Source: Spirochaetia bacterium (GTDB lineage Bacteria; Spirochaetota; Spirochaetia; DSM-27196; Salinispiraceae). From it: a stretch of 64,000 bases of DNA. Positions 3,253 to 21,494 of this stretch are shown here, piece by piece. Where the stretch lies: assembly GCA_038204425.1 (NCBI GenBank), contig JBBRCZ010000001.1:1-64000 (forward strand). Direction: 5' to 3'. Position numbers and translations under genes: made by a program. Position 1 is the stretch's first letter. Every line of letters begins with the position of its first letter. A model generated the notes under the pieces. It had not been told where the DNA came from. It did not search any database and saw only the letters and a program-made list of their open reading frames with translations.

Positions 3253-3270
3253 TATAATAGGGGGGGGGGC
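3253..3270 (+). promoter_or_regulatory. TATAAT -10 box followed by a G10 homopolymer directly upstream of the fliO ATG
   Basis: TATAAT 3253-3258, G 3260-3269, ATG 3271; 8-bp inverted repeat AGCAAAGG/CCTTTGCT at 3223-3248. Confidence 0.55.
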
Positions 3271-3948
3271 ATGAATCGCACTATCTTGGGAATAGCCATT
3301 CTTGGTCTATCCCTTTTTTCGTTACAGGCACAAGCATCAGGCCCTATCGTAGAAGGCCGCGTTGTTGTCAGTGACTCTACAACTACAACTACAACTCTTG
3401 TTAATCCTGATGATCCAGCAATTCCTGAAGAGGGAGATTCTCAACCTGCACAAGTAGGTTCGATTGAAGCCTTTGGTATTTGGGATTTGCTACGCATGGT
3501 ATTGGTTCTTGGTTTGATTGCGGCTGCAGCATATGGAGCTCTGTTCTTCATCAAGAAAAACAAAAAACAAATCTTGCCCGAAACACAGTTAATCAGAATT
3601 CTTGGCAGTCAGGGACTTCCAGGTAATCGTTGGTTGCACCTTATTAATGTTCAAAAACAAGTCTTCTTGATAGGGTCGGCTGACAACGCTATTTCACTCA
3701 TTGCGGAAATACAAGATCAAGAATCAAAAGACGAAATTCAGATGCTCGCATCACAAGAAACTATCGAACCAAAAAAAGGGTTTGCTGAACTACTTGGAGG
3801 CATTCTGGGTGGCATTTCGGGCAGTGGAAACAAAGCTGACAGTAGCGAAGGCGGAAAGAAACCAGGTTCTGGCAAGAAAGCATCAACAAACAACGATGCG
3901 TTTTCCTTTATGCAGACACAAAAGAAGCGCCTTAAGGATCTACCATGA
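3271..3948 (+). CDS. fliO: Flagellar biosynthesis protein FliO (spirochaete FliZ)
   Basis: Signal peptide, TM helix, IRILGSQGLPGNRWLHLINV..LIGSADNAISLI; lies between fliY and fliP. Confidence 0.85.
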   Translation: MNRTILGIAILGLSLFSLQAQASGPIVEGRVVVSDSTTTTTTLVNPDDPAIPEEGDSQPAQVGSIEAFGIWDLLRMVLVLGLIAAAAYGALFFIKKNKKQILPETQLIRILGSQGLPGNRWLHLINVQKQVFLIGSADNAISLIAEIQDQESKDEIQMLASQETIEPKKGFAELLGGILGGISGSGNKADSSEGGKKPGSGKKASTNNDAFSFMQTQKKRLKDLP

Positions 3949-4772
3949 GAAGCGAGAAACCCATTAAATCTGGTCTTCGTTCTAAAGTTTTGCTCTGTCT
4001 TTTCTTGACGATTTTAGTCTCTCCGGTAACTTTGCTGGCACAGTCGAGTCCAGGGGTGATTAGGGATCGACAAGGTGGCCAAGTGCTCAACCAAATTCCT
4101 TTTATTGATTTGACCGTGCGTAATCCCCAAAATAACCAAGAAGTGGCACTATCGGTGCAATTGCTTTTGGTTCTTTCGGTCTTAAGCCTAGCTCCGAGCA
4201 TCATAGTAATGATGACTGCATTCTTGCGCATTAGCATCGTGATGGACTTTGTAAAGAGAGCGCTATCGTTGCAGTCTGTCCCACCTACGCAAGTTTTGCT
4301 TGGAATCTCATTGTTTCTGACCATATTTATTATGTGGCCGACCATAAACACTATCTATACCACTGCATACAAACCTTTCTCTGATGGAGATATGGGAATA
4401 GAAGAAGCATACCAGAACTTTGAAAAGCCAGTTAGACTGTTTATGTACAGGCAGATGGTTAATGATCCTGATAGTATTCGACTTTTCATGCGCATGAGTA
4501 ATTTGCCTCGCCCTAAAACACTATCCGATGTACCTACCTATGTACTTATTCCAGCTTTCATTCTTCACGAAATGACTGTCGCTTTTAAGATAGGCATTCT
4601 TTTGTTTATACCCTTTATTATTATTGATATGGTGATTTCTAGTATTCTGATGTCTATGGGCATGATGATGTTGCCGCCAGTGATGATTAGTATGCCGTTT
4701 AAGTTAATTTTGTTCGTTCTTGTAGATGGATGGACTCTGTTGACCCAACAGTTGGTCGCAAGTTTTAGGTAA
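3945..4772 (+). CDS. fliP: Flagellar export gate FliP
   Basis: LSLAPSI..MTAFLRISIV, GMMMLPPVMISMPFKLILFVLVDGW. Confidence 0.97.
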   Translation: MRSEKPIKSGLRSKVLLCLFLTILVSPVTLLAQSSPGVIRDRQGGQVLNQIPFIDLTVRNPQNNQEVALSVQLLLVLSVLSLAPSIIVMMTAFLRISIVMDFVKRALSLQSVPPTQVLLGISLFLTIFIMWPTINTIYTTAYKPFSDGDMGIEEAYQNFEKPVRLFMYRQMVNDPDSIRLFMRMSNLPRPKTLSDVPTYVLIPAFILHEMTVAFKIGILLFIPFIIIDMVISSILMSMGMMMLPPVMISMPFKLILFVLVDGWTLLTQQLVASFR

Positions 4773-4783
4773 GGAGGCGAGAG

Positions 4784-5053
4784 ATGGATTTTGGTTCAGC
4801 AGTATCAATTATGCGTTCGGCAATATTTCAGGTGCTCATCTTGTCAGCGCCTGTTTTGATCGTGAGCTTGGTGGTGGGACTAGTTATTTCTATTTTTCAA
4901 GCAACTACCAGCATACAGGAACAAACACTTAGCTTTGTTCCCAAGCTGGTTGCTATAATGTTGGCTTTAATGTTCTTGGGCCCTTGGATGTTGGGTACTC
5001 TGTCTAACTACACGAGGGAACTGTTTCGGCAGATTCCTTCGATAGCGAGTTAG
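4784..5053 (+). CDS. fliQ: Flagellar export gate FliQ
   Basis: GLVISIFQATTSIQEQTLSFVPK. Confidence 0.97.
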   Translation: MDFGSAVSIMRSAIFQVLILSAPVLIVSLVVGLVISIFQATTSIQEQTLSFVPKLVAIMLALMFLGPWMLGTLSNYTRELFRQIPSIAS

Positions 5054-5066
5054 GTATAACAAGTCA

Positions 5067-5894
5067 ATGTATTGGTTAGATCTGGCTGACAACGCGCAAC
5101 TATTTTTTTTACTCTTTGCCAGAATTATGAGTTTGATAATGATAGCGCCGATTATTTCAAGTGAAGCCATCCCCTCGATTGCCAAAGTAGGTCTTGCATT
5201 TTTAGTCGCAGCAGGCATTTATCCTTGGGCGTCTAAGCTTGGTTTTGTAATTCCTCAAGATGTCATGGCTTATGTTTTGCTTTTAATTGGCGAAATATTT
5301 ATTGGCATCATCATTGGCTTCTTTTTTCAATTGATCTATTCTGGCTTTCAAACAGCGGGGCAGTTTTTTAGTCTACAAATGGGGTTCGGCGCTTCGGAGG
5401 TATTTGATCCATTGTCAAACGAAGAACTTCCGTTGCTGGGCCAGTTTTTTAATCTGATTGCGATGTATGTTTTTTTGGCAAGCGCTGGTATGCAAAAAAT
5501 GTTTTTACACGGCGTATATGGCTCTTTCTTAGCACTTAAGGCACAAGATCTTGCATCTAGTAGCTCGATTTTGTCCTTATATTTTGTTGGGGCACTCGGG
5601 AGGCTCTTTACCCAGGCCTTTATGTTGGCCTTGCCAATAGTAGGTTCGCTCTTTTTGATTTCAATAGGCATGGGGCTTTTGTCTAAAGCTGCTCCGCAAA
5701 TGAACTTGCTATCGATGGGTTTTCCGATCAACTTGTTGGTTGCCTTTGCTTTGATGGTTTTTATTCTGCCTAATTTGATGGGGACCTTTTCAGGCATTGT
5801 CGACGATAGCTTTAAGCTGCTGGATGATTTGTTCCGCAACATGGCCGGACAAGTTCCTTCGTCAAGAGTACCTGTGCCAGGAGGTCAGCCGTGA
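5067..5894 (+). CDS. fliR: Flagellar export gate FliR
   Basis: Polytopic; AGQFFSLQMGFG, KAAPQMNLLSMGFP. Confidence 0.96.
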   Translation: MYWLDLADNAQLFFLLFARIMSLIMIAPIISSEAIPSIAKVGLAFLVAAGIYPWASKLGFVIPQDVMAYVLLLIGEIFIGIIIGFFFQLIYSGFQTAGQFFSLQMGFGASEVFDPLSNEELPLLGQFFNLIAMYVFLASAGMQKMFLHGVYGSFLALKAQDLASSSSILSLYFVGALGRLFTQAFMLALPIVGSLFLISIGMGLLSKAAPQMNLLSMGFPINLLVAFALMVFILPNLMGTFSGIVDDSFKLLDDLFRNMAGQVPSSRVPVPGGQP

Positions 5895-7036
5895 CGGGCC
5901 GCCAAGTACTTGAACGGGAAAAGCTTCAAGAGCAGCTGATCTTGATGCACCTTCAATGGTTTGCCGCTGAAGACGAAGGTCGAACCGAAGATCCCACCGA
6001 ACACAAAATAAAGAAAGCTCGTGAAGAAGGTCGTGTACCCAAGAGTCAAGATTTGACCGCAACAATCGTGCTCCTGCTGACAACAATTGGACTTGGAATT
6101 TTTGGTGCTTGGTTGCTCGAGACTATGGCCAACATGCTTAGATTTTTTTTGAGTCAAAGTACTCAATATGACCCGGTAAATGATCGCGGAATTATGCAAG
6201 CCTTTATTTCTTGGTTTTTTCAATTGTCCATGCCGCTGCTACTCGTTGCGATGTTAGGAGGTTTCCTGGGGGATTTTATGCAAGTTGGCTTTAAGTTTAC
6301 CACAAAGCCGCTCAAGCCTGACTTTAAGAGAATAATGCCTAAATTTGGCGAATATATTAAGCGAAGCATTCTTGGTACAGAGGCCATCTATAATCTCGGA
6401 AAGTCATTCGTCAAAATCGGTATCCTTGTTGTTATTGTATTTATCAATATACAGGGTAACCTCAATTTATTGCTAAACCTCAACAAACGGACAGTGCTCG
6501 CCGGTGTTGGCTTTGTATCCGGGCTTGTTTGGCAGGTCCTTCTCCAGTCTTCCATCGCTCTTTTGGCTTTGGCCTTGTTTGATTGGTGGTTTCAACGAAG
6601 ACAATTCAAAGAATCGCTCAAAATGACCAAGCAGGAAATCAAAGAGGAACGAAAAAGCTATGAGGGAGATCCACTGGTCAGGAATAGACTCAAGCAGAGA
6701 ATGCGCGAAATCCTCAACCAAAACATGATTCGCAATGTGCCTAAGGCCGACGTGGTAATTACAAATCCTACTCATTATGCGGTTGCTATGGAGTACAAAA
6801 AAGACAGCATGCAAGCGCCTACCGTTATTGCAAAGGGGCAGGATTTAATTGCCCAGCGTATTAAGGAAGTTGCTCGCGAAAATGGTATAGCTATAATCGA
6901 AAACAAGCCACTTGCACGAGCTCTTTTTGCTGAAGTCGAAATTGGGGATGTTATTCCAGATCGTTTTTATGAAGCGGTGGTTGTTGTTCTTAAAGAAGTT
7001 TACCGAATCAAGCGCAGGGAAAGGGAGGCTGTTTAG
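5891..7036 (+). CDS. flhB: Flagellar export switch FlhB
   Basis: RTEDPTEHKIKKAREEG, NPTH autocleavage motif. Confidence 0.97.
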   Translation: MTGRQVLEREKLQEQLILMHLQWFAAEDEGRTEDPTEHKIKKAREEGRVPKSQDLTATIVLLLTTIGLGIFGAWLLETMANMLRFFLSQSTQYDPVNDRGIMQAFISWFFQLSMPLLLVAMLGGFLGDFMQVGFKFTTKPLKPDFKRIMPKFGEYIKRSILGTEAIYNLGKSFVKIGILVVIVFINIQGNLNLLLNLNKRTVLAGVGFVSGLVWQVLLQSSIALLALALFDWWFQRRQFKESLKMTKQEIKEERKSYEGDPLVRNRLKQRMREILNQNMIRNVPKADVVITNPTHYAVAMEYKKDSMQAPTVIAKGQDLIAQRIKEVARENGIAIIENKPLARALFAEVEIGDVIPDRFYEAVVVVLKEVYRIKRREREAV

Positions 7037-7039
7037 TAT

Positions 7040-9160
7040 ATGTCAGATCTTTCCAAAATTTTGGGTTCAAGTTTGCTCAAACAAAGGGGCGACGTCGCGG
7101 TGGCAATTGGTGTCATCATGGTTGTGATAATGCTTATCCTACCAATGCCGACGATTTTGTTGGACCTTTTTCAAGCCGTCAACCTGGTAGTGGCGTTGCT
7201 TATACTATTGATTGTACTGTCAGTTAAGCGTGCGCTAGAGTTTAGTATTTTTCCGACCATGCTACTGATTTCTACGGTTTTTAGTTTGGCCCTAAACGTC
7301 TCCTCGACTCGCTTGATCCTTGGACAAGGTTCAGACTTTGATGGTCGACTCGTGCGCAGTTTTGGTACTTTCGTTGTCGGCTCTAGTGGCAACGAAGGTT
7401 TGGTGATAGGCATAATTATTTATATAATTATTGTTGCCGTGCAATTTTTGGTTATTACCAAAGGCGCCACCCGCGTTGCAGAAGTTGCTGCTCGTTTTAC
7501 CCTTGACGCATTGCCAGGTAAGCAGATGGCTATTGATCAAGAGTACTCATCGGGTTTTATCGGCGAGGAAGAAGCCCAAAAGAAGAAGGCAGACCTTCAA
7601 CGCGAAGTTGACTTCTATGGCCAAATGGATGGTGCTTCTAAGTTTGTCTCGGGCAACGTTACTATTGGTATTCTGATCACTTTGATTAATATTATTGGTG
7701 GAATGATCATAGGCATGACAATCCACGGCGAGGATTTAACGGTTGCCGTAAATACCTACGTTAACTTAACAGTTGGCGACGGTTTGGTGAGTCAGTTGCC
7801 TGCCTTGTTGATTTCTGTTGCCACGGGTTTGATAGTTACTCGTTCGGGCTCGGACGGCACGCTCGGCCAAGATGTAACGGCGCAGTTTAGTCAGCAAAGT
7901 AGAATATACTTCATCGGTGCGGCTTTTGTTGCTGGTATGGGATTATTGCCCGGTTTTCCTTGGTATATTCTGTTTCCCATGGCTGCTGGATTGGCTTACC
8001 TCGGTTTTAGATTGGGAAAAAAACAGATGGCTGAAGAAGAAAAGATTGCAGCCGCAAACGGTGAGGACGGTAGAGTTGCCGGTGGAAAGCAAAATGAAGG
8101 TTCAAAACCCAAAGATCCAGGGGATATCTCACCTGTCGCTCCGCTCGACCCAATCAGTATTGAACTTGGCTACGGACTAGTACCTTTGGTAGACAAAGAC
8201 CAAGGAGCAGAACTATTGGAGCGAATTACCAAAATTCGACGTGAAGCAGCCTTGGATCTGGGATTGGTGGTGCCGAGAATACGTATCATAGATAACATGC
8301 GACTCGAACCGACCGAATACTGCATGAAAATTCGTGGCGTGGAGCTTGGCAAAGGTTCTTTGCGCTTAGGAAGCTTTATGTGTATCAACCCAGGCAGTGC
8401 AAAAGAGGAAATCGCTGGAGAAAAAACCCGCGACCCTGCTTTTGGTCTACCTGCTTTGTGGATCAATGATGACCAACGCGAAAAAGCCGAACGACTCGGC
8501 TATACGGTAGTTGATCCTCCCTCGATTATAGCAACCCATCTCAACGAAGTAATCAAACGCAACGCCGCTGAAATCCTGGGTCGACAAGAAGTCAAAACTA
8601 TACTTGATGCACTCAAAAAGGACTATCCAGCTGTGGTTGACGATGTGCAGCAAAGCCTTGGTACCGGTGAGATTCAGAAAGTGCTACAAAATTTACTGCG
8701 CGAACAAGTCAGTATCAGAAACATGGTTACTATTCTTGAATGCTTAGGTGACTTTGGTAAGATCACTAAAGAAGTCTCCTTCTTGACCGAAAAAGTTAGA
8801 CAAGCTTTGGGCCGCCAGATTTGTATGCAATATGTTGATGATGATAAGCTTCTTCATGTGCTTACGATCGATCCAGATTTAGAACAACAAATAATTGATT
8901 CTCGTGTAGACACGTCGGCTGGCTTGGTTGCAGCGCTTGCCCCAGATGTGATGAGAAAGTACGTTACGGCGGTTCGTAACACGGTAAAACACGTCCAGGA
9001 TCAAGGCTACTTCCCTGTCATTGTTACCCAAGAGGCATCGAGACCCTTGGTTAAGTCCAGTATAGTCCGTGAACTACCCGACGTAGTTGTACTTTCTATT
9101 TCTGAGTTGGTAAATGATGTGAGAATTGAAGGCATTGGAGAAATTAGAATAGATGGGTAA
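7040..9160 (+). CDS. flhA: Flagellar export protein FlhA
   Basis: FHIPEP motif RVAEVAARFTLDALPGKQMAID, DFYGQMDGASKFV. Confidence 0.98.
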   Translation: MSDLSKILGSSLLKQRGDVAVAIGVIMVVIMLILPMPTILLDLFQAVNLVVALLILLIVLSVKRALEFSIFPTMLLISTVFSLALNVSSTRLILGQGSDFDGRLVRSFGTFVVGSSGNEGLVIGIIIYIIIVAVQFLVITKGATRVAEVAARFTLDALPGKQMAIDQEYSSGFIGEEEAQKKKADLQREVDFYGQMDGASKFVSGNVTIGILITLINIIGGMIIGMTIHGEDLTVAVNTYVNLTVGDGLVSQLPALLISVATGLIVTRSGSDGTLGQDVTAQFSQQSRIYFIGAAFVAGMGLLPGFPWYILFPMAAGLAYLGFRLGKKQMAEEEKIAAANGEDGRVAGGKQNEGSKPKDPGDISPVAPLDPISIELGYGLVPLVDKDQGAELLERITKIRREAALDLGLVVPRIRIIDNMRLEPTEYCMKIRGVELGKGSLRLGSFMCINPGSAKEEIAGEKTRDPAFGLPALWINDDQREKAERLGYTVVDPPSIIATHLNEVIKRNAAEILGRQEVKTILDALKKDYPAVVDDVQQSLGTGEIQKVLQNLLREQVSIRNMVTILECLGDFGKITKEVSFLTEKVRQALGRQICMQYVDDDKLLHVLTIDPDLEQQIIDSRVDTSAGLVAALAPDVMRKYVTAVRNTVKHVQDQGYFPVIVTQEASRPLVKSSIVRELPDVVVLSISELVNDVRIEGIGEIRIDG

Positions 9161-9165
9161 GGTAC

Positions 9166-10374
9166 ATGGGTAATTTGATGGAGATGGACTATTTTACCAT
9201 ACAGGCTACAAGCTACCGTGAGGCTATGAGCAAGGTCCAAGACAAGTACGGTCCAAATGCGCAAATCATTTCTCAAAGAACCATCCGCATGGGCGGGTTC
9301 ATGGGAATTATGGCTAAAGAGGGCGTAGAGGTCAGCGGCTATATTAAAAAAGAGACGCCTAAAAAGAAGGTGCTTGGTCTAGAAGAAGAAAAGAAACGGT
9401 TTATGGAACTTGGCAAAATCGATCAAGCGACAGTTATGACCCAGATTTTGGCTGAGGTTAAGTCCCTCAAGACTCAAATGAATGACAAATCCAATCAAAA
9501 CACTTCAGCACGACAAGATCATGAAGCCATAATTCGTATGGGCGAACTGCTAGAGTCAAACGAATTTAGCAGCCGCTATGCAAAAAAAATGTTGCAAAGG
9601 TTAAAGAACGAGTTAACCCTAGAAGACCTTGACGACTGGAACTTAGTTCAGGACAGAATGTTAGAGTGGATTGGTGAGTCGATCAACGTATTTGAGGAAC
9701 GAGGACGCGAGAAACCGCAAGTCTTTATTTTGGTTGGACCTACTGGAGTAGGAAAAACAACAACCATAGCAAAGTTGGCGGCTAAGTTTGGCATAGCTGC
9801 GTCAGGGGCTTCAAAAAAAAAGGTGCGCATAATTACCATAGACAACTATCGAATTGGTGCGCGACATCAGATAGAAACTTTTGGCGAAATAATGGGTGTT
9901 CCTGTCAATTGTGCCGAAACAGCTGAGGACTTACGCAAGTTTATGGCTTATTACCAAGATGTTGATGTGATTTTTATTGATACGATAGGAAAAAGTCCAA
10001 AGGACTACGAAAAGATTGGCCAAATGCGCGTCATGCTCAAGGAATGTGGGGCCAATCCACAAGTTCACTTAGCACTTTCTGCCACCACAAAAGGCAGCGA
10101 TATGGTTGAAATTGCACAACAATTTGAACCTTTTAATTATCGCTCTGTAGTCCTGACCAAATTGGACGAAACTAATAAGGTGGGTAGTGTAATCAGTACG
10201 CTTTCGGAAAAGCAAAAGTCTATTTCCTATATTACCACCGGTCAGGTGGTGCCCCACGATATTGAGGCCGCAAGCGTCATAAGACTGCTATGCAACCTCG
10301 AAGGATTCCGAGTAAATCGGGATCGTTTGGAACAAAGATTCTTGCAAAAAAAGGCGGACTACGAACATGGCTGA
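9166..10374 (+). CDS. flhF: SRP-family GTPase FlhF
   Basis: GPTGVGKTTTIAKLA, DTIG, TKLDET, GQVVP. Confidence 0.96.
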   Translation: MGNLMEMDYFTIQATSYREAMSKVQDKYGPNAQIISQRTIRMGGFMGIMAKEGVEVSGYIKKETPKKKVLGLEEEKKRFMELGKIDQATVMTQILAEVKSLKTQMNDKSNQNTSARQDHEAIIRMGELLESNEFSSRYAKKMLQRLKNELTLEDLDDWNLVQDRMLEWIGESINVFEERGREKPQVFILVGPTGVGKTTTIAKLAAKFGIAASGASKKKVRIITIDNYRIGARHQIETFGEIMGVPVNCAETAEDLRKFMAYYQDVDVIFIDTIGKSPKDYEKIGQMRVMLKECGANPQVHLALSATTKGSDMVEIAQQFEPFNYRSVVLTKLDETNKVGSVISTLSEKQKSISYITTGQVVPHDIEAASVIRLLCNLEGFRVNRDRLEQRFLQKKADYEHG

Positions 10375-11233
10375 TCAAGCAGAAGCCCTACGAGAAATTA
10401 TGCAAACTGGCTCACCACTTAATAAGTCTCGTACCAGAATTATAACGGTAGCATCAGGAAAAGGTGGGGTAGGCAAGTCCAATATTTCTACCAATCTTGC
10501 CCTAGCTTATGCAAAAACCGGAAAACGAGTAATTCTTATGGACGCTGACCTTGGCTTGGCCAACGTAAACGTCTTGCTTGGTATTATCCCAAAGTACAAC
10601 TTGTATCACTTGATCCGGAAACAAAAGACCATGAAAGACATTCTTATGGATACCAACTATGGTATCCAATTGGTAGCGGGTGCATCCGGCTTTTCAAAAC
10701 TGGCCAACCTAAGCGAAGAAGAGCGCGAAAACTTTATTAGAGAACTAACCGCGCTTTCGAATGCTGACATCATAATTATCGACACGTCTGCTGGAGTATC
10801 CAGAAACGTGCTTTCCTTTGTTGCTGCCGCTGATGAAGCAATTATTGTAACAACGCCAGAACCAACAGCAATCACTGACGTCTACGGTATCATAAAGATA
10901 ATTGCGACCGAAGTTGACAGCCTTGGCCTGTCCCTCAAGTTGGTTGTTAACCGTGTCAAAAGTGTCACCGAAGGCAAAAAGGTCAGTGAACGAATCATCA
11001 ACATTTCCAATCAGTTTCTAAATCTCAAAGTTGATTACTTAGGATACGTTTACGAAGATACGGCGGTACACCTCGCGGTTCAAAAACAAAAACCGTTTAT
11101 AGTAATGGATCCCAAAGGTAAAGCGAGCGCGTGTATTCATCAATTAGTTAGTCGCCTAGAAAAGGTGGAGTATAAAGAAGGTGGAGGACTTGGCAAATTT
11201 ATTAGAAAGCTCTTCCAAAACAGCGAAGAATAA
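10367..11233 (+). CDS. flhG: MinD-like ATPase FlhG
   Basis: MADQAEALR, SGKGGVGKS, DADLGLAN, TTPEPTAITD. Confidence 0.95.
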   Translation: MADQAEALREIMQTGSPLNKSRTRIITVASGKGGVGKSNISTNLALAYAKTGKRVILMDADLGLANVNVLLGIIPKYNLYHLIRKQKTMKDILMDTNYGIQLVAGASGFSKLANLSEEERENFIRELTALSNADIIIIDTSAGVSRNVLSFVAAADEAIIVTTPEPTAITDVYGIIKIIATEVDSLGLSLKLVVNRVKSVTEGKKVSERIINISNQFLNLKVDYLGYVYEDTAVHLAVQKQKPFIVMDPKGKASACIHQLVSRLEKVEYKEGGGLGKFIRKLFQNSEE

Positions 11234-11304: not shown

Positions 11305-11946
11305 ATGAGCCTACAACTCAGATTTGGTTTATTCGGCGCGGCTTTTGGACTGTTTCTTGGGATAGTCGGAGGCATTCTGTCGGGTATACCTTTTGGTATT
11401 GTTCTATTTCGATCTCTTTTAATCGCAATCGGCCTAGGCCTTGCGGGTTTTCTTTTGTACACGGTCATCAATAAACTTATCCCGGAGCTTGCCAATGCAT
11501 TGCAAGGCAATGAAAGTGCCGAAGTGCTCTCCAGCACCGGCGGTACGATAGACATTACGCTCGCAGAAGATGACGACTCAAGCCCTAGTGAAAATGCAAG
11601 AATGCTCTACAGTGATTCTTCCGAAGAGAATCAATATTCGGCGGCAAGAGCTGAAGGTGACGGCATCGTCGAGGAACTTCGCGATGACACCCGTTATGGT
11701 AAAGTCGCAAACGATAATCAAGTGGATTTTAACGAAGACGAGTTTTATAATGGAGTGGAACACTTGCCGGACATTGGTGGATTTTCCGACCAGTTTCAAT
11801 CAAACGAAGCTAATGACGAATCAGACTCCGCCTCGTCCCTAGGCTCCAGTTCAGGAAAAAAACAAAAGTCAGGTGACAACAAAAATATGGACCCTGCTCT
11901 CATCGCTCAAGCGATTAGAACGGCACTCCACAAGGATGATCACTAA
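11305..11946 (+). CDS. flgV: Probable FlgV flagellar basal-body protein
   Basis: Two N-terminal TM helices, acidic disordered middle, C-terminal [13 protein letters not shown]; located between flhG and fliA. Confidence 0.7.
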
Positions 11947-12758
11947 TGGAAATTATGGAAAAAAAAGCTCAAACGACAGAACCTATGGAAGAGCATGCTG
12001 AAGATGAGCTTTGGAGAGAATACCGAAAGACTCAGAACCAGGCTATTCGAGAACGGTTGATCAAACAATATGCTCCGCTTGTCAAATATGTGGCCGGAAA
12101 GGTTGCAGTTGGCATGCCGTCAAATGTTGAGTTTGACGATTTGGTTGGCTATGGGGTTTTTGGCCTTTTTGATGCGATAGAGAAGTTTGATCCAGATAAG
12201 CACGTCAAGTTTAAGACTTATGCGGTCACGAGAATTCGTGGTGCGATCTTTGACGAATTGAGATCCATTGATTGGGTGCCGCGTTCGGTCAGGCAAAAAA
12301 CTCGTGAAATAGAAGATGCAGTGCGCAAACTCGAGTCATCGTTGGGTAGATCCGCTAGTGATGATGAAATTGCAAAACAACTCGGAGTAACGGTTCGAGA
12401 GTTTGAAAAAATGATGATGAAGATATCTTCGGCCTCACTTTTGTCGCTTAATGATGTTTGGTATACCGGCGAAGACAACGACAAAGTAAGTATAGGCGAC
12501 TCCATTGAGAGTCCTCAAAGTCTCAATCCCGATATAATTGTAGAAAAAGAAGAAATCAGAAGGGTAATTGTCCAAGCCATCGAAGATCTGCCAGAAAAAG
12601 AAAAAAAGGTTTTGATTCTCTATTACTACGAAGATCTAACATTAAAAGAAATAGGGCGTGTTTTGGAAGTGACTGAGTCTAGAGTGAGTCAGTTGCACAC
12701 GCGAGCTATAATTCGCCTAAGAGCTAAGTTGACCAATATCAAACGCGGAATAGTCTAA
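11946..12758 (+). CDS. fliA: RNA polymerase sigma-28 factor (FliA/WhiG)
   Basis: [40 protein letters not shown]. Confidence 0.96.
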
Positions 12759-12770
12759 AAGGAGCCTTTG

Positions 12771-14714
12771 ATGAAGCTCGCCGAACTGCAAGAAATCATG
12801 GGTCGCCAAGCTACAGAAGACAAAAAGCAAAAGTATGTCAATGCAACGGCACCGACTATGCAAGAGGCACTAGCAAAAGCGGCTGTCGAACTTGGAGTCC
12901 CCGTTCAACGAATTGCTTTTGAGATTGTTCAAAAAGGTGAGCTCGGAATGATGGGCGTTGGCAAAAAAGATTTTGTAATTATGGCCTATGCAATCAAAGA
13001 TCCGTCTGCGCTTCAAAGTGAAGATTTGGGGGACATGGATTTTGGATTTGATACCAACGCTAATAGAGACGGCAAGATTTTCGTTAGAAAGACTTCAAAT
13101 GCAGTATTGATTAAAGTTATTGCTCCAATTGGTAATGGCCAAGCAGTGAGTGAACATGTGGCATTGGCCGCCGTTCAACACAAAACCCAAGAGAATATTA
13201 ACTCAGGCATGGTCTCTAAAGCAGTTAAACGGCAAGATGAAGAATGGATCAAAGTGGCCGTCCTAGACGAATACAATCCCAATGAAGACGCCAGAATAGA
13301 AGTAGAAACCACGGACATGGAAATGAAGGCCTGGGTCACCTTGACGCGACCAGGTCGCAATGGCGCTGATGTTAGTACTGAGCAGATTCGCGCCGCCTTG
13401 AGTTCTAATCTGGTAGTCGAGGGCTTTTTGCCAGATGCAATTTTGGCCTTGGAAGAAAACCCTAGTTATGGCGAACCTGTTTTGGTCGCCGAAGGAAACC
13501 GTCCGCAGAATGGAGAAGACGCAAAAGTTGTCTATTCTTTTGAAACAAGCAGAAAAGTAAAAATTAAGGAAATGGAAGGTGGTAGGGTAGACTTTAAAGA
13601 ACTCAATACCATAAACAACGTAGTTGAGGGCCAAGTTCTGGCAAAGTTGCTAGCACCAAAGCGTGGCGAACCTGGTTTGACGGTAACCGGAAAAATGCTG
13701 CCAGCAAAAGATGGTAAACAAAAAGATCTAGTGGTTGGTAACAATGTACGCCTTTCGGAAGACAAAAAACAGGCCATAGCCAATGCCAACGGACAGGTTA
13801 TACTATCTGGCGAAAAAATAAGCGTCGAACCAATCCTTACCATTGAAGGTAATGTAAACATGAAAAACGGAGGAAACATTGTTTTCCTTGGTTCAGTCAA
13901 TGTTAAGGGCAATGTTGAAGACGGATTTAGTATCAAGGCAGCGGGAAACATTGAAGTCAATGGAACCATTGAAAAGTGCGAAATCGATTGCGAGGGCGAT
14001 ATTATTGTTCACAGTGGTATTACCGGCAAAGGCGGAGCATTGATTAAGTCAGGCGGAAACATTTGGGCCAAGTTTATTGAGAATGCAAATGTAGAAGCAG
14101 GTGGTTTAGTTATTGTCAGCGAAGGTATTGTTAATTCTACAATCGCTTGTGACCATAAAGTTATTTGTCGCGGCAAGCGAGCTTCAATAGTGGGCGGATC
14201 TATCAAGGCATGTGAAGAAATTGATGCCAAAAACCTTGGTTCGGTTGCCGGTGTAGAAACGATTTTGGAGGTCGGCTTTGATCCCAAGCTAAAAGCGTCG
14301 CTTGAAGCGTGTCTTGAGTCGATCAAGCTTATCCAAAAAGAAGAAACTGAAGTCATGCTCAATCTTGCAACACTGGATAAGCTCTTTAAGGCCAAAAAAG
14401 ACCAACCTAAAGAAAAGAAAGATTACTTTGACAACTTGAAAAAGCATTCAATGGAACTAAAGAAGTCGTTAAAAGAAAAACAAGAAGAACTGACTCAGTT
14501 TCAACAACAGATCAACGAACTCAAGACACTTGGTAAGATATCTTCGTCAGGTAAGGTTTATCCCGGCGTAAAGATTCAAATCAGGGATTCATACTTGGAT
14601 GTGCGCAATGAGTATAGAGCCGTAAGCTTTATAAGCGAACATAATATTGTTAAGATCACCAAATACGTAGAATCAGACGAAGACATCAGTTTGAATAAGG
14701 GCAACAAAAGATGA
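12771..14714 (+). CDS. FapA/DUF342 family protein with Jag-like N-terminus
   Basis: Jag_N-like AKAAVELGV..FEIVQKG, VDFKELN..NVVEGQVLA, beta-helix GNV repeats, VYPGVKI. Confidence 0.85.
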   Translation: MKLAELQEIMGRQATEDKKQKYVNATAPTMQEALAKAAVELGVPVQRIAFEIVQKGELGMMGVGKKDFVIMAYAIKDPSALQSEDLGDMDFGFDTNANRDGKIFVRKTSNAVLIKVIAPIGNGQAVSEHVALAAVQHKTQENINSGMVSKAVKRQDEEWIKVAVLDEYNPNEDARIEVETTDMEMKAWVTLTRPGRNGADVSTEQIRAALSSNLVVEGFLPDAILALEENPSYGEPVLVAEGNRPQNGEDAKVVYSFETSRKVKIKEMEGGRVDFKELNTINNVVEGQVLAKLLAPKRGEPGLTVTGKMLPAKDGKQKDLVVGNNVRLSEDKKQAIANANGQVILSGEKISVEPILTIEGNVNMKNGGNIVFLGSVNVKGNVEDGFSIKAAGNIEVNGTIEKCEIDCEGDIIVHSGITGKGGALIKSGGNIWAKFIENANVEAGGLVIVSEGIVNSTIACDHKVICRGKRASIVGGSIKACEEIDAKNLGSVAGVETILEVGFDPKLKASLEACLESIKLIQKEETEVMLNLATLDKLFKAKKDQPKEKKDYFDNLKKHSMELKKSLKEKQEELTQFQQQINELKTLGKISSSGKVYPGVKIQIRDSYLDVRNEYRAVSFISEHNIVKITKYVESDEDISLNKGNKR

Positions 14715-15773: not shown

Positions 15774-17462
15774 ATGATACTTGGGATAGACTTGGGGACT
15801 AGCAGCTGCGCTGCTGCAATGAAGCTAGATGCGGGGCTAAGAATCCTGAGTAATCAAGCAGGTCAGATTTTTACTCCTTCTGTATTTGCTTGTACTGAAA
15901 CCGGCCAGTTTTTATTGGGTGAGGCCGCTCTAAATGCGGCATTGACCAAAAACACCGTAACAATAGTGGATTTTAAACGATTTCTTGGAAGCGATCACAA
16001 GTGGCAGATACCAGGTGGTCAAATCTCCGCTCTGGAAATTGCTGCACAGCTGATAGCTTCTCTTAATCAGGATTGTTTGAAAACCATCAATCAACTTGCA
16101 AAAGAGTGTATCATTGCAGTGCCTGCGCACTTTGGCTTTAGGGCTCGACAGGATGTGATCAAAGCTGCGGCACTAGCCGGACTAAGTGTAGTGCGCCTGG
16201 TGCACGAACCAACGGCGGCCGCGCTAACACTTTTTGACAATCTAACACGAGACGGATACTTTGTAGTTTTTGATTGTGGCGGTGGCACGTGTGATGTAAG
16301 CCTGCTTCTAAAGAATAAAACCAAACTTAGGGTAGCCGCAAGTGCGGGTGATGAAAACCTTGGTGGCAACGATTTTGATAGGGCCTTAGTAGATTTTTTG
16401 CGCGACCAGATTAGGGAACAGGGATTTAAGGATCCTTACGATGACGCTGAATGTCGATGGTTTTTGATGCAGAATGCCGAAAAAGCAAAAAGAGAACTAT
16501 CAGTTTGTACTGAAGTGAGCTTACAAACCCCAGCTCTTAGTCAAACCGGCCAAAGAACCACATTAGAGGTTTCGCTCAGTAGGGGCCAATTTGAAGCGAT
16601 AACTATTGTATTGGTTCAGAAGGCTGTTGCATTGCTGGAGTGCGTTTTGCACGACAGTGGGCTCGAGGCAAGCCGCATAGACGGTCTAATTATGGTTGGT
16701 GGCTCTAGTCGCATGCCGATGCTGCGAAACGCTTTGAAAGAGTTTAGTGCCCAAGAACCCATTTTAGCTAAAAACCCTGATGAATCTGTGATAGTTGGCA
16801 CTGCCATGTTGGCCACAATGGTAGAAACCAAACAAGAACATGATCTAGTCGATCTAAATTCACTAGCGCTTGGCCTCGAGTTGGATGATGGGTACACTCA
16901 TATTTTGATTAATAGAAACACCACTTTGCCAATTCAAGTGGAGCAGTTTTTTACTACGGTAGCAGACCAACAGGATGAAGTCGAGTTTCATATTGTGCAG
17001 GGCGACAACGCGCTCGCAAAAGAAAATGAAAGTATCGCTAGAGTCAGTCTGCGCGGACTTGCGCCATCTAAATCCGGAGCGGTGCGTATCAAAGTAGTCT
17101 TTGCTCTGGATTTGAGCGGAATTCTTACTATAAGCGCCAATGACGAATCATCGGGGCAAGTCCAGACTCTTTCGGTTCTGATAAAAGCGAAGAGCACTCA
17201 AAGTTACGACAAAGAGCTTGAAAAATTACGCTTAGTGCACGAAGCGCATCGAATCGCTAGTGACCAAGCTTTGCCAGCCGAACTCAGGACTAGTTTAAGT
17301 AAATTGGCGCATAAATTAGCTCAAAGTGGTCTTAGTCGCAGTGGTGATCATGAAAAAGATGCGTTGCAAACGGCCCTGCTGGGTTCTAAGGTGGTGGCAT
17401 TGATTGTCGAATGCCAGGCTAGGTTAAGGGAACAGTCTAGCCACAAGAGGCTAAAGCAATAG
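15774..17462 (+). CDS. Divergent Hsp70-family protein
   Basis: GIDLGTS, FKRFLG, VPAHF, HEPTAAA, DCGGGTCDVS, LGGNDFD, AEKAKRELS, VGGSSRMP, SBD FTTVADQQ..VQGD. Confidence 0.93.
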   Translation: MILGIDLGTSSCAAAMKLDAGLRILSNQAGQIFTPSVFACTETGQFLLGEAALNAALTKNTVTIVDFKRFLGSDHKWQIPGGQISALEIAAQLIASLNQDCLKTINQLAKECIIAVPAHFGFRARQDVIKAAALAGLSVVRLVHEPTAAALTLFDNLTRDGYFVVFDCGGGTCDVSLLLKNKTKLRVAASAGDENLGGNDFDRALVDFLRDQIREQGFKDPYDDAECRWFLMQNAEKAKRELSVCTEVSLQTPALSQTGQRTTLEVSLSRGQFEAITIVLVQKAVALLECVLHDSGLEASRIDGLIMVGGSSRMPMLRNALKEFSAQEPILAKNPDESVIVGTAMLATMVETKQEHDLVDLNSLALGLELDDGYTHILINRNTTLPIQVEQFFTTVADQQDEVEFHIVQGDNALAKENESIARVSLRGLAPSKSGAVRIKVVFALDLSGILTISANDESSGQVQTLSVLIKAKSTQSYDKELEKLRLVHEAHRIASDQALPAELRTSLSKLAHKLAQSGLSRSGDHEKDALQTALLGSKVVALIVECQARLREQSSHKRLKQ

Positions 17463-17487
17463 ACCGGAAAGTGCGATACAATAGGGT

Positions 17488-18057
17488 ATGGCTTTGTTGA
17501 TTGATACTATTTTGGAAGTGCCTCAGGCTTTTCCTTTTGCATTGGTGCAAGAAGCGTACAGGTTGCGCTCTTGGGAACTACACCCTGACGTTTCCTTGCT
17601 TCCGGATGCTCACGATCGTTTTTTGGAATTGACTCAGTCTTTTAGCAATTTTCGCAAGGCAACTAGGCCTGATTCCAAGACTCCGTACGACTGGGATGAC
17701 CCTGACTGCTTGAGCTCAGCACTATATAGCGGCGTGCCTGACAGGATTAAGTCTGGTATGATTAGACGGATAGGAACATTGGATCCCTTTGGTCAAATGG
17801 CCGTGCTCTTGGATTGTCTGAAGCATGGGAGTCCAACTCTAGTATGGAGTGCGACTCATGTTCTGGCTAGGATAGAATGCAGATCTGCCTTTGCAATATT
17901 TTGTGATCGATTTTCTAGTATGCCTCGAGCTGTAAAACTTGCTATGATTCGGTTTAAGCATACCGTCGGTGGGCAGCAGGCATTCCAAATCGAACGTTTG
18001 GCTCAGATTGATTCTGATGTTATTATTAGTGGAAATTGGCGAGTGAAGACGCTATGA
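17488..18057 (+). CDS. J-domain protein with HEAT-like C-terminus
   Basis: ILEV..VQEAYRLRSWELHPDVS..AHDRFLELTQSF; HPD at 17581-17589. Confidence 0.8.
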   Translation: MALLIDTILEVPQAFPFALVQEAYRLRSWELHPDVSLLPDAHDRFLELTQSFSNFRKATRPDSKTPYDWDDPDCLSSALYSGVPDRIKSGMIRRIGTLDPFGQMAVLLDCLKHGSPTLVWSATHVLARIECRSAFAIFCDRFSSMPRAVKLAMIRFKHTVGGQQAFQIERLAQIDSDVIISGNWRVKTL

Positions 18058-18075
18058 AACAAAAGGCTATGAACC

Positions 18076-19878
18076 ATGGATAATTCTGAGCGATTAAAGG
18101 CGTTATCGGCAGGAGAATTGCCACGTCTACTAGACGAGTTTGAGGCCTTACTCAATAGTATGGAATACAGCTTTCGCATTTCAAACTTGGCACTTGGTGA
18201 TGGCTCGCCGGGGTTCTTGCGGTCTTTGCACAGTATCAAATCAATAGTCCAAACTGTGTATGGCAATGAGTCGGCACTAAAAGCACATGAACTAGAGAGC
18301 CTGTGGGCTCAAGCCGAAGACTGGCCTCGCTTTTATGCCCAAGCGGGCGGCTTGCGAGCAAGCATTGACGAGCTAACCCAAACAAGAGAACAAAGTACCT
18401 CCAGCCAGCAAGGTGCTGTAGCCGACAAGACGCTAGACGCTGTGGCTGACAAGATATTGATGCAATCGTTTTATTGTTCAATTCTCACGGTTCCTTCAAG
18501 TTCAGTTGAAAAAATTGCTCAGATGGTGCAGCGAGGACGAGGTCTTTTGCGTGTTCAGTTTTGGATTGCTGGAAACGAACCCTTTAAACTGATGCGTGCC
18601 CGGGTAGTTTTGAGTATTCTGCAGAAAAAATTGTGGATAGGTTCGATTAGAGCGCACTTTACTAACGATCATGGGCACGTGCAAAGTATTGAGGTTCAAC
18701 AGGCAACTGACGTCAACCAAGCAGTCGAGAGCACGCAAGCAGTTTTGATTGAGTGCCTAGCAATCGGAGATTGCAGTCGTGAAGAAGTGCTAGACAGTTT
18801 TAACGTGGACAATGTTTTTTTTCCAAGGACCGACAATATAGACTTTGCAGAAACATTTGATAGGCAAGGAAGTGACCAGACCAGGCAGACCTTGTGTCTT
18901 CTGATGAGAAAATATGCACCCAACAACGGTGTCAATCCAGAGCAGGCTTTCGTTTCTTTTTCGATGGAATGGCGGCCTCTGGCGATTGCTATCAACTCTC
19001 TTGGAAATGACTACAGCAGAGAATTTGTTGATAATGTTAGAGCTGTAATGGAGAACTTAGCACCACAACAAGCTAATCAACTAGAAGTCCACCTTGATTG
19101 GAGCGACTGTCAGCTTCCCAAGCTCTTGTGTGGTTTACTACTCGAGGTTTTCTTACACCTAGCCAGAAACGTTGTTTCGCATGCTTGTCAGTCACTAGAA
19201 CAAAGACGCTCCAAACGAAAGAACCCAGCGCTTCAACTTGGAATTTCGCTTGCGCTAGACGGAAGCGACCTTGTTTTAGTTGTCGAAGACGATGGGCCGG
19301 GCATCGAATCTGGCAGATTGCCCTTGGAAATGCTTTCCAAAAAACAGAAAAGTGATCTAAAGGGTGTGGACACACAAGATCTGCAAGCTGATTCTGGTGA
19401 GAAAGCCAACCTGCTTTCTGGTCGAAGTTTGGGGCTCTCAACAGCACTTCATTTAGTTCAAAATCGGCTTCACGGAACCGTACATTGTTCTTGGCAGAAG
19501 GACGTGGGGACACGCTTTGAAATACGGATTCCGCGCAACGCTAGTCAACTAGAAGTGAGATTTTTGAATACTCCCAATGGTTTGGTGGCTGTTCCTGAAG
19601 TACTGATTTTGGAAGAACTATCTCAGATTGACCAGTTTCGGTCTAATGGATCACAGTGGGTATATGCGTCTCGCCAAGTGCCGATTCTTTCTGGAGTACC
19701 AGAAAATCAAAGCTCACAAAAAAATGTCTACTTACTTCATCAAGATGGCCTTGTGCAGGCAGTTGTTTTTGCCGAGAGCAAGAACCACACTGAATCATGC
19801 CTTTTGCCTTTTGAAGGAACTTCTGTCTATTCGGAACAACTAGAACAATGGGTGCAACTACTGGAGTTGCCCAATTAG
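18076..19878 (+). CDS. Degenerate CheA-like protein (Hpt, P2-like, HATPase, partial CheW-like)
   Basis: FLRSLHSIKS (Hpt His), HLARNVVSHA (N box), VEDDGPGI (G1), SGRSLGL (G2), GTRFEIRIP. Confidence 0.8.
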   Translation: MDNSERLKALSAGELPRLLDEFEALLNSMEYSFRISNLALGDGSPGFLRSLHSIKSIVQTVYGNESALKAHELESLWAQAEDWPRFYAQAGGLRASIDELTQTREQSTSSQQGAVADKTLDAVADKILMQSFYCSILTVPSSSVEKIAQMVQRGRGLLRVQFWIAGNEPFKLMRARVVLSILQKKLWIGSIRAHFTNDHGHVQSIEVQQATDVNQAVESTQAVLIECLAIGDCSREEVLDSFNVDNVFFPRTDNIDFAETFDRQGSDQTRQTLCLLMRKYAPNNGVNPEQAFVSFSMEWRPLAIAINSLGNDYSREFVDNVRAVMENLAPQQANQLEVHLDWSDCQLPKLLCGLLLEVFLHLARNVVSHACQSLEQRRSKRKNPALQLGISLALDGSDLVLVVEDDGPGIESGRLPLEMLSKKQKSDLKGVDTQDLQADSGEKANLLSGRSLGLSTALHLVQNRLHGTVHCSWQKDVGTRFEIRIPRNASQLEVRFLNTPNGLVAVPEVLILEELSQIDQFRSNGSQWVYASRQVPILSGVPENQSSQKNVYLLHQDGLVQAVVFAESKNHTESCLLPFEGTSVYSEQLEQWVQLLELPN

Positions 19879-21494
19879 CTGCTTGTCTTTTTGCTCAAAT
19901 AGTAGTCAAAGTCCCCTTCAAAAATCCGCATTTTTCCGCTGTCGATCTCAAAAACTTTGCTGGCAAGCCGGCGTAAAAAGTATCGGTCGTGGCTAACAAT
20001 CATAACAGTGCCATCGAAGTCGACCAAAGAATCCAAGAGGACTTCTCGGCTTTGAATATCGAGGTGGTTGGTTGGTTCGTCGAGAACCAAGAAATTAACA
20101 GGTAGGGCCAGAATACAAGCAAGAATAACCCGGCTTTTTTCGCCACCCGACAGCACTGAAATCTTTTTTTCACTATCAGTGCCTGAGAACTGAAAAGCGC
20201 CCAGTATGCCTTTTATGGTGCCAATGCTGGCGTGCGGAAGGCGCTCGGCTATTTCTTCAAAGATAGTACTTTGCGGCCGCAGCACATCACTCGAATACTG
20301 GCTAAAGTAGCCAAGGTTAACACTGTTGCCAACCACGCTTTTGCCACTTGTTGCATCAGTTTGGCCGGTAATTACTTTGAGCAAAGTTGACTTGCCTGCG
20401 CCGTTGATCCCGGTTAAGGCAATGCGATCGTTTCGGTTGACTGTCCCAGTAAGACCCCTAAAGACCTGGTGCATGCTGCCGTCGGGATTGAGCCAGGCTT
20501 TAGATAAGTCTTCCATAACTAGCACTTGGTCCCCCGAACGTTTACAAGCGGCAAACTGGATTTTGAGCGCTTTAGGATAAGTTGGAAGTTCGATGCGTTC
20601 TATCTTTTCTATAGTTTTGACGCGAGACTGAACCTGAGCTGCGTGCGAGGCGCGAGCGCCAAACCGAGCAATAAACTGTTCTTCCTTGGCTAACATGGCT
20701 TGTTGGCGTTTGAAGGAGGCCACTTGTTGGTCTCTCCTAAGGACTCTTTCTGTTAAATAAAAATCGTAGTCACCGGTATAAGTGGTAATGGTGCCCGCGG
20801 CGACTTCAATCGTCTTTGAGCACAGGCGAGTCATAAATTCGCGGTCATGACTGGTCATAACCAGCTCGCCTTTATAGGACTTGAGCCATGCTTCTAACCA
20901 AACAATCGACTCCAGATCAAGGTGATTGGTGGGTTCGTCCATCAGAAGCACATCAGGCTGTAAAACCAAAATTTTGGCCAAAGCGATACGCATTTTCCAA
21001 CCACCGGAGAAGTTCTCTACCGGAAGTTTTTGGCGTTCAGTGGCAAAGCCCAAGCCGCTCAATATGGTTTCAGCTCTGTTTTCTAAATCGTATCCATCGA
21101 GATTCATGTACTCGGTCTGTATCTCGCCGTAATGTTCCATCTCCGTTTGGCTAAGGCTGTCGCCGCCGTGCCCTGCCATTCTGTCTTCTAAAGCAGCAAG
21201 TTTTTGACCAATCAGCCAAACTTTGCCGGCACCGGCGATTACTTCTTCTAAGACGCTTTTGCCTGACATTTCTCCCACATCTTGGCTAAAGTAGCCAATC
21301 ACGGTTCCTGGATCTACGGAAACTGTGCCCTCATCTGGTTTTTCTTGTCCACTTATTAGGCGAAACAAGCTCGTTTTTCCTGCTCCATTGGGGCCAACCA
21401 AGCCAATTTTATCGCCTGATTTTATGAGAAACTCACCTTGGTCAATTATGCAATGGTCCCCATAGCTCAAATGTATAGAAGAAAGATTGATCAC
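19875..21494 (-). CDS. ABC-F family ATP-binding protein
   Basis: Two Walker A motifs ([16 protein letters not shown]), [18 protein letters not shown] x2, no TM. Confidence 0.95.

Follow-up and report, generated by a model that had tools for sequence, protein, structure and literature searches.

Why should a flagellar operon end in a chaperone pair and a homologue of the chemotaxis kinase CheA? The question is raised by the window analysed here, that is, the whole stretch of 64,000 nucleotides (nt) at positions 1 to 64,000 of the forward strand of contig JBBRCZ010000001.1, from the genome of a Spirochaetia bacterium (GenBank assembly GCA_038204425.1). Three co-oriented open reading frames (ORFs) at the end of the operon encode, in this order, an Hsp70, a J-domain protein and a divergent CheA homologue, called CheA-like below. 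The reading that we favour, with a probability of about 55%, is that this trio represents the conserved 3' terminus of the flagellar superoperon in the free-living Spirochaeta/Alkalispirochaeta/Marispirochaeta group, and that it is made of two modules, a motility-dedicated Hsp70–J pair and the CheA-like protein.

The trio closes a single long run of plus-strand genes with the order fliL...flhA-flhF-flhG-flgV-fliA-fapA-yjfB-TM+HTH, the last of these encoding a protein with a transmembrane and a helix-turn-helix segment (TM+HTH). The accessible text of PMC11607428 describes a sigma-28/FapA sub-module that includes "YjfB" and a "TM + HTH" protein. The gaps before the three terminal genes measure 3, 25 and 18 nt, the first being the distance from the TM+HTH stop codon to the Hsp70 start. 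A first-pass annotation, made from the letters alone, had described three co-oriented genes at the end of a flagellar operon and had named them Hsp70, J protein and divergent CheA. The ORF positions and gaps agree with that description, and Pfam, profile and structure-model evidence upheld the three identities.

Among 5.8 billion proteins the J and CheA-like proteins of the window had no near relative, the only matches being distant CheAs (best E 3e-10) and one 99%-identical protein of 187 amino acids (aa), so the trio was traced by synteny. Forty related genomes were searched. A short Hsp70 paralogue was found in most genomes of the order's other ten families, and in many of the 40 a CheA-type match lay about 3 kb downstream of it on the same contig. 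In 18 of 18 loci the order was flhA-flhF-flhG-(flgV)-fliA-fapA-yjfB-TM+HTH-Hsp70, followed by a gap or middle ORF and then by an ORF of 573–709 aa. Of the 18 loci, 16 had a middle ORF listed; in L028 and L032 the gap held no ORF of at least 90 aa. A broader survey covered the best 80 of 427 FapA-linked loci in named genome records, found with a FapA alignment. Their titles named Spirochaeta, Alkalispirochaeta, Marispirochaeta and Sediminispirochaeta, as well as unclassified Spirochaetales, Spirochaetaceae, Spirochaetia, Spirochaetes and Spirochaetota. The loci were scored with hidden Markov models (HMMs) built from the 18 loci, with which they overlap in several records, so that the two sets are not independent. 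At least 5300 nt were available after fapA in 51 of them. All 51 Spirochaetales-type loci carried the CheA-like gene and 40 carried all three genes, as the first-pass annotation had led one to expect of a trio conserved together. Two more held J and CheA-like, and one held a 187-aa Hsp70 stump with J and CheA-like. The Hsp70 was reduced to 187–221 aa at L090:12815-13378 and L112:7876-8541, with J and CheA-like whole, and at L147:3047-4794 a flagellar Hsp70 was split into ORFs of 89 and 492 aa; these three cases reflect either gradual loss or faulty assembly.

Where it could be measured, selection on the trio was purifying. The ratio of nonsynonymous to synonymous divergence (dN/dS, or omega, by the Nei-Gojobori method) was obtained for two unsaturated pairs of loci, L023/L024 and L025/L037, with synonymous divergence (dS) of 0.9–1.1 for the trio genes, four further pairs being saturated. 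Omega was 0.07–0.08 for Hsp70, 0.04–0.17 for J and 0.09 for CheA-like, next to 0.02–0.06 for fliA and fapA and 0.03–0.20 for yjfB and TM+HTH. A dN/dS near 1, which the first-pass annotation had named as the mark of decaying paralogues, was thus not seen in these values of 0.04–0.17, and the low omega argues that the trio is not decaying in these two pairs of lineages.

The organisation of the operon end elsewhere in the phylum points to how the trio is composed. The Spirochaetota were sampled with 55 loci from 120 genomes, one or two per family code, and five loci of the window's own family (seven genomes) were added, for a total of 60. Enough flank was available in 55 of these, 50 of them outside the window's family. 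In five of the 50 the Hsp70–J pair led into a canonical CheA. The following genes were cheW-cheR-(unknown)-cheD-cheA-cheY in L134 and L144 and cheW-cheR-cheA in L147 (Pfam; cheY was not part of the scan in L147), and the superoperon CheAs of these three loci carry H-kinase_dim; L169 and L175 were read from HMMs and ORF sizes only. Four loci had Hsp70–J without any CheA, four lacked the pair and had che genes immediately behind TM+HTH, one had Hsp70 alone and one a weak J match alone. The trio is therefore composed of two separable modules, Hsp70–J and CheA-like. The Hsp70–J pair goes together with the fliA-fapA-yjfB-TM+HTH sub-module and is often followed by a che operon. Since each module occurs without the other, inherited gene order accounts for at least part of the adjacency within the trio. 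In the Spirochaeta group the lone CheA-like gene occupies the very point at which the che operon starts in other Spirochaetota. Because Hsp70–J elsewhere leads into cheW-cheR-cheD-cheA-cheY, the CheA-like gene is, by synteny and position, probably a fast-evolving survivor of that operon.

The first gene of the trio encodes an unambiguous Hsp70 (Pfam HSP70, PF00012, 372.7 bits for a cut-off of 20.6). The ATPase motifs GIDLGT, FKRF, HEPTAAA, GGGT and VGGSSR are kept and were all located in the sequence, together with the linker HDLVDLNS, in agreement with the first-pass annotation. The hydrophobic run of this linker is also missing in other Spirochaetales-type copies (xLxDV) and is present in the copies of other families (VLVDV). 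The lid had been called unrecognisable, which overstates the case, since it is short yet helical and can be aligned with DnaK. The best solved-structure match was DnaK 2v7y (E 4.3e-90). The DnaK equivalog models of NCBIfam were failed by a wide interval (365.3 bits for a cut-off of 648 and 353.9 for 822.55), and the HscA model gave 343.8 bits, near the DnaK score and under its cut-off of 708.55. The locus had been judged not to be the housekeeping dnaK locus, and this was borne out: grpE, dnaK and dnaJ lie together on contig 10, with the genome's only GrpE match, a DnaK of 899 bits and a DnaJ. No CIRCE element (controlling inverted repeat of chaperone expression) was found within the window, where a scan that allowed up to 3 mismatches to the CIRCE consensus gave 0 matches. 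Source annotations of the flagellar Hsp70s read "Hsp70 family protein", "heat-shock protein Hsp70" or "molecular chaperone DnaK" only. In two loci of one same-order family, a DnaK-type Hsp70 (L030:2213-4147, 644 aa; L034:110-2017, 635 aa) is encoded on the same strand 2.4–4.4 kb past CheA-like, which brings a housekeeping-type DnaK close to the flagellar Hsp70 there.

In form, as judged by alignment, the Hsp70 is HscC-like, although we do not file it as HscC. The traits of HscC are a length of 550–580 aa, a deletion in lobe I, an L1,2 insertion of 4–8 residues, a deletion in helix B and a private J-protein, and the lobe-I deletion is also found in many non-proteobacterial DnaKs (PMC8215388, accessible text). 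Twenty-two flagellar Hsp70s, including the window copy and that of a 1.2-Mb genome, were aligned with DnaKs and with E. coli DnaK, HscA and HscC. The lobe-I deletion was common to all 22 and to E. coli HscC. The syntenic copies of the same order measure 553–573 aa, and the window copy, with 562 aa, is within the HscC length class. The likeness to E. coli HscC extends to the deletion of DnaK residues 76–101, the short helix B and lid, the short tail and the adjoining J-protein gene, and no GrpE partner is expected. The helix-B gap falls at the same place in the window and other Spirochaetales-type copies and is not seen in those of other families. In a quick tree E. coli HscC, on a long branch (2.55), joined four non-Spirochaetales flagellar Hsp70s with a support of 95 in the Shimodaira–Hasegawa-like approximate likelihood ratio test (SH-aLRT), and 13 Spirochaeta-group Hsp70s plus two others formed a separate starred clade. 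The flagellar proteins differ from HscC in their superoperon context, in the degenerate hydrophobic linker of the Spirochaetales-type copies and in their J partner, whose HEAT-like tail is soluble, in contrast to the membrane tail anchors of DjlC and DjlB; HscC has been suggested to act on membrane proteins (PMC8215388). The E. coli K-12 hscC locus (L178, 675000-690000) encodes the Sel1-repeat proteins YbeQ and YbeT beside DjlB and DjlC, a loose parallel to the HEAT tail.

The J protein of the window, a class-C type, scored 19 bits with Pfam DnaJ, under the cut-off of 27.8. Among the 16 syntenic middle ORFs, DnaJ was detected in 15 and HEAT_2 in 16 at E<=0.1, each being over the Pfam cut-off in 13. 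The HPD motif is at residues 32–34 and, in an AlphaFold2 (AF2) model, lies between helices 17–31 and 41–58. This model, with a predicted local distance difference test score (pLDDT) of 90.1, showed three J-like helices and, behind them, a solenoid of eight helices. Foldseek returned weak alphaRep/ARM/HEAT matches for it (best E 0.06), with none at E<=0.001. The J protein with an intact HPD and a HEAT-like tail that the first-pass annotation had described was thus recovered, the motif being located, the solenoid present in the model and HEAT_2 found in the orthologues. General DnaJ proteins carry glycine/phenylalanine-rich and zinc-finger regions; in the J protein the HEAT tail stands instead of them. 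The protein atlas groups DnaJ+HEAT_2 proteins into automatic clusters, and Spirochaetota supply most members of one of these.

In the CheA-like protein of the window Pfam matched HATPase_c alone (36.1 bits), and Hpt was undetected. The third ORFs of 18 orthologous loci matched HATPase_c in 17 cases, Hpt in 14, P2 in 10, CheW in 2 and H-kinase_dim in none. A profile of 23 CheA-like orthologues aligned with E. coli CheA 6s1k over profile positions 10–593 (E 6.5e-71), and also matched the P3–P5 domains of T. maritima CheA, aligning to 1b3q from residue 34. The AF2 model (pLDDT 70.9) had a P1–P5-like layout, in which a helical bundle is followed by an alpha/beta domain, then by a pair of helices, the kinase domain and finally a beta-rich domain. 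Its top Foldseek matches were all CheA (1b3q, E 2.5e-17). A low-confidence stretch at residues 416–449 of the P4 model was read as the position of the ATP lid. The likeness to CheA (6s1k, 1b3q) lies in the P1-P2-P3-P4-P5 order; the difference lies in the want of adjoining cheW, cheY, cheR and cheB and in catalytic boxes eroded in several lineages, that of the window included. Two canonical CheAs are encoded elsewhere in the window's genome.

Alignment of 60 CheA-like proteins to the family model revealed four states of the catalytic boxes. In most proteins, and in most lineages, the Hpt His is retained together with all four boxes (N, G1, F and G2), so that these CheA-likes probably still autophosphorylate; a Marispirochaeta isolate (L073-type) is among those with intact boxes. 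Ten have neither the His nor the F box and keep N and G1 (L040, L041, L044, L046, L049, L057, L064, L065, L070, which is from Alkalispirochaeta alkalica DSM 8900, and L081). Three (L045, L054 and L097) are without any catalytic box. In the window His52, the N-box Asn and G1 are kept, DHGIE is replaced by SHACQ, the F box is absent and G2 reads GRSLGLS. The window protein may accordingly be read as a weak kinase or a pseudokinase, because the F box is absent and the N and G2 boxes are altered. Every locus with an eroded kinase keeps Hsp70 and J beside CheA-like. The loss of the boxes with the gene kept suggests a structural or scaffold role, added to phosphotransfer or replacing it.

The window's own copies evolved fast. 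The median identity of the window protein to the others, divided by that of the others among themselves, was 0.65 for Hsp70, 0.61 for J, 0.70 for CheA-like and 0.67 for YjfB. The acceleration appears specific to the operon end, because the same ratio was 0.87–0.99 for flhA, flhF, flhG, fliA and fapA. The window proteins held the longest or near-longest branches of the trees (3.28 for CheA, and 3.68 for Hsp70 where the median was 0.55). Among the other sampled genomes of the window's family no Hsp70 paralogue was found at E<=1e-30. CheA-like directly followed TM+HTH in three of the five own-family loci, where it was barely seen by Pfam, and was lacking in the other two; the window protein grouped with two of these own-family CheA-likes (SH-aLRT 88). 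We read the window copies as being under changed or relaxed constraint and not as pseudogenes, because their frames are open, the HPD and ATPase motifs are kept, and the models of J and CheA-like fold confidently.

As to function, the Hsp70–J pair is most likely a motility-dedicated chaperone, whose client can be named as a candidate only. The HPD loop of the J domain would trigger ATP hydrolysis on the flagellar Hsp70, and the HEAT-like tail would select the client. Because the pair always follows fliA-fapA-yjfB-TM+HTH, this client would most likely act in motility and be encoded on the same transcript; CheA-like and the membrane protein TM+HTH are the candidates. Crude relative evolutionary rates of Hsp70, J, CheA-like and TM+HTH covaried with rho of 0.37–0.61, compared to 0.03–0.29 with YjfB. 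The coefficients were 0.55 for Hsp70 and CheA-like, 0.52 for J and CheA-like and 0.61 for TM+HTH and CheA-like. The TM+HTH protein is a candidate client as open as CheA-like, because it is translationally abutted to the pair, predicted to be membrane-bound and covarying, which recalls the action suggested for HscC on membrane proteins.

Several observations weigh against this picture of the operon end. Outside the window's family 35 of the 50 loci had neither module there, and the pair is consequently not needed for endoflagella in general. In the survey, eight of the 51 loci had CheA-like directly after TM+HTH without Hsp70 and J, and seven of these eight keep intact CheA-like boxes, L042 being degenerate. 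The rate covariation ignores shared ancestry and saturation, and its p-values overstate. Complex prediction for the CheA-like protein of L031 (alignment of 50) and its J-HEAT protein (alignment of 42) returned a score of 0.00, which speaks neither for nor against a contact. In the CheA tree the operon-end CheA-likes fell outside the starred clade that holds the superoperon CheAs and nine other canonical CheAs; this tree is dominated by long branches and neither confirms nor rejects descent from a superoperon CheA. The quick Hsp70 tree left the window copy unplaced; in the approximately unbiased (AU) test a tree placing it inside the flagellar Hsp70 clade was not rejected and was slightly better (p-AU 0.55). 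The omega values are those of other lineages, no close relative having been found to measure selection on the window copies. The L1,2 insertion of E. coli HscC is absent from the window copy and the 21 other flagellar Hsp70s; this, together with the occurrence of the lobe-I deletion in many non-proteobacterial DnaKs, is why membership in HscC is not established.

The first-pass annotation had gone further than two modules and proposed an Hsp70–J–CheA unit. In its strict form J-HEAT would deliver CheA-like to a private Hsp70, which would fold, hold or gate it, making CheA-like an obligate client. The co-occurrence of the three genes in 40 of 51 loci stood up and speaks for such a unit, as does the retention of J with CheA-like where the Hsp70 is lost or cut down (L061, L110 and L090 of the 51; the flank of L112 was too short). 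No locus of the order has Hsp70–J without CheA-like, the rates of both chaperones covary with that of CheA-like, and all three genes were accelerated jointly in the window's lineage. What did not stand is the obligate link. CheA-like is alone in the eight loci just mentioned, with intact boxes in seven, and in three of the five own-family genomes. Hsp70–J occurs without CheA in four loci of the phylum sample and in five more beside a canonical CheA, which is not expected to need a private chaperone. The covariation is moreover equally strong with TM+HTH. An obligate three-part unit, and CheA-like as its obligate client, therefore seem rather unlikely to us.

The fast evolution of the window copies could also mean that the trio is in this genome a decaying remnant, its constraint relaxed in the family and no function left. 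The other sampled own-family genomes have neither Hsp70 nor J, and their CheA-like is nearly invisible to Pfam (three) or absent (two); the branches of 3.28 and 3.68, the J domain under the Pfam cut-off and the eroded kinase boxes point the same way. However, the frames are open over 562, 189 and 600 codons without a frameshift. J still has its HPD, Hsp70 its ATPase motifs, and the kinase His52, the N-box Asn and G1, and the two AF2 models are well folded. Divergence this strong without any stop would suggest continued selection on the frame, and we hold a remnant to be distinctly improbable. A second general-purpose stress Hsp70/J pair that merely adjoins the flagellar operon, with no tie to motility, would suit the generic source annotations and the DnaK-like substrate-binding domain. 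It fits poorly with a position directly after TM+HTH that is fixed across many Spirochaetota families, with stops and starts often overlapping or near-abutting. The DnaK equivalog scores are far too low (365 vs 648 bits), there is no CIRCE match in the window and no grpE nearby, and the J protein has a dedicated HEAT tail. Such a pair is very improbable. The preferred reading remains that of a conserved operon end in two modules.

Textbook accounts divide the bacterial Hsp70s into three kinds, DnaK, HscA and HscC. A 2021 review of bacterial Hsp70s names these three only, and in its accessible text "flagell", "spiroch" and "Borrelia" gave no match (PMC8215388). The flagellar pair resembles HscA–HscB in joining a specialised Hsp70 to one adjoining J-protein, and HscA–HscB serves a client of the same operon; it differs in that no isc genes are near the trio and that HscA is without the lobe-I deletion. 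With housekeeping DnaK the window Hsp70 shares the fold and the ATPase motifs, but it is 80 aa shorter and only 33% identical to the genome's own DnaK over residues 76–501. The last gene of the Borrelia burgdorferi superoperon, bb0264, presumably also encodes an Hsp70. This flgB superoperon spans bb0294 to bb0264, with bb0268 sharing a transcript with bb0272-bb0264 (PMC11607428). For comparison, a flagellar-type Hsp70 of 503 aa stands directly after fapA-yjfB-TM+HTH in L125, whose genome (1.2 Mb) belongs to a different family of the same class; no J or CheA follows this Hsp70, the next genes being an opposite-strand ORF and an M23/LysM peptidase gene. The accessible main text of PMC11607428, figures and supplements aside, gave no match for hsp70, dnaK, dnaJ or cheA. 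The accessible text of a large J-protein survey contained neither "chemotaxis" nor HEAT repeats (its five "heat" were all in "heat shock"), and gave no whole-word match for the stems "flagell" and "spiroch". No description of a flagellar Hsp70–J–CheA-like module was found in the literature searched. Specialised Hsp70/J pairs are known, and what is new here is the J-HEAT partner, the flagellar superoperon context and the link to a CheA series. We think it quite unlikely that the pair is a fourth dedicated bacterial Hsp70 system beside DnaK, HscA and HscC, active at the flagellar or chemosensory apparatus, in which the HEAT tail would dock on a complex of membrane TM+HTH with the CheA-derived (pseudo)kinase and ATP-driven remodelling by Hsp70 would switch this complex on or off.

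The features of the locus are collected in the following table.

Table. Positions in the window of the trio, its domains and the neighbouring genes.
Feature	Position	Strand	Basis or remark
Upstream flagellar genes fliL, fliM, fliN/Y, fliO, fliP, fliQ, fliR, flhB, flhA, flhF, flhG	370..11233	+	Pfam; tightly packed ORFs
FlgV-position gene, 213 aa, without Pfam match	11305..11946	+	between flhG and fliA
fliA (sigma-28)	11946..12758	+	Pfam Sigma70 r2/r3/r4; 72–82% identity to orthologues
fapA	12768..14714	+	Pfam FapA 248.6 bits and FapA_N
YjfB-position small acidic protein, 123 aa	14741..15112	+	conserved position; name from the sub-module in the accessible text of PMC11607428
TM+HTH protein (DUF2802-like), 213 aa	15129..15770	+	N-terminal hydrophobic helix and HTH-like C-terminal end in translation
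Hsp70, HscC-like in form, 562 aa	15774..17462	+	
Hsp70 nucleotide-binding domain with lobe-I deletion (DnaK 76–101)	15774..16838	+	motifs, alignment
Interdomain linker HDLVDLNS (DnaK: VLLLDVTP)	16839..16862	+	alignment
Substrate-binding beta domain, approximate bounds	16863..17192	+	aligns with DnaK 398–507, without HscC L1,2 insertion
Short helical lid without acidic tail, approximate bounds	17193..17459	+	alignment with DnaK 500–638
J-domain + HEAT-like co-chaperone, 189 aa	17488..18057	+	
HPD codons	17581..17589	+	invariant in 22/22 and 42/42 sequences
Alpha-solenoid (HEAT-like) tail, helices 72–188	17701..18051	+	AF2 model; HEAT_2 in orthologues
Divergent CheA homologue, 600 aa	18076..19878	+	
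P1/Hpt-like four-helix region; His52 at 18229-18231	18076..18396	+	AF2 helices; LHSIKS aligns with AFRxxHSxKSE of orthologues
P2-like alpha/beta domain	18496..18861	+	AF2 model; Pfam P2 in 10/18 orthologues
Two long helices, P3 position	18874..18999	+	AF2 model; profile alignment to 1b3q
P4 kinase domain: N box HLARNVVSHACQ, G1 DDGPG, without F box, G2 GRSLGLS	19006..19533	+	
P5/CheW-like beta domain (model residues 490–595)	19543..19860	+	AF2 strands; profile aligns to CheA P5
ABC-F ATPase gene, convergent, bounds operon	19875..21494	-	stop overlaps CheA-like stop by 4 nt (19875-19878)

A few features call for comment. The FlgV-position gene has weak BLAST orthologues that hold the same place in related loci, and flgV/bb0268 is situated between flhG and fliA (PMC11607428, accessible text). 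The TM+HTH protein matched Pfam DUF2802 at 26.4 bits, under the cut-off. The FliN-type gene (2022-3206) encodes 394 aa, of which the FliMN_C match covers the C-terminal 70 residues only; it may represent a fusion resembling FliY, such as other spirochaetes have. A scan for promoters and terminators between 11000 and 22500 gave counts of 17 and 9, compared to 14.7 and 12.0 in shuffles, and found nothing that splits or bounds the operon. No RNA sequencing run was listed for 14700-19900. Convergent ABC-type ATPase genes also face the CheA-like gene in L026, L035 and L036. Past the operon lie B12-binding radical SAM, PAP2 phosphatase and diacylglycerol-kinase-like genes (22247-23926 and 24424-26197, both on the minus strand), without evident link to the trio.

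The finding places a short Hsp70 with its own J-HEAT partner at one fixed position of the flagellar superoperon in many Spirochaetota families, a fourth context for a bacterial Hsp70. An ancestral gene order, with the pair leading into a che operon, would explain the lone CheA-like gene at the operon end. The window copies are the most diverged members seen; they make a poor functional model and a good case of lineage-specific co-acceleration. The CheA-like genes of the family offer a natural gradation of CheA homologues, with intact kinases at one end and pseudokinases at the other. If the pair were indeed a fourth Hsp70 system, the polar motors of spirochaetes would receive a signalling input that is gated by a chaperone. 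The trio family offers a defined, small and genetically testable chaperone link to motility or chemotaxis.

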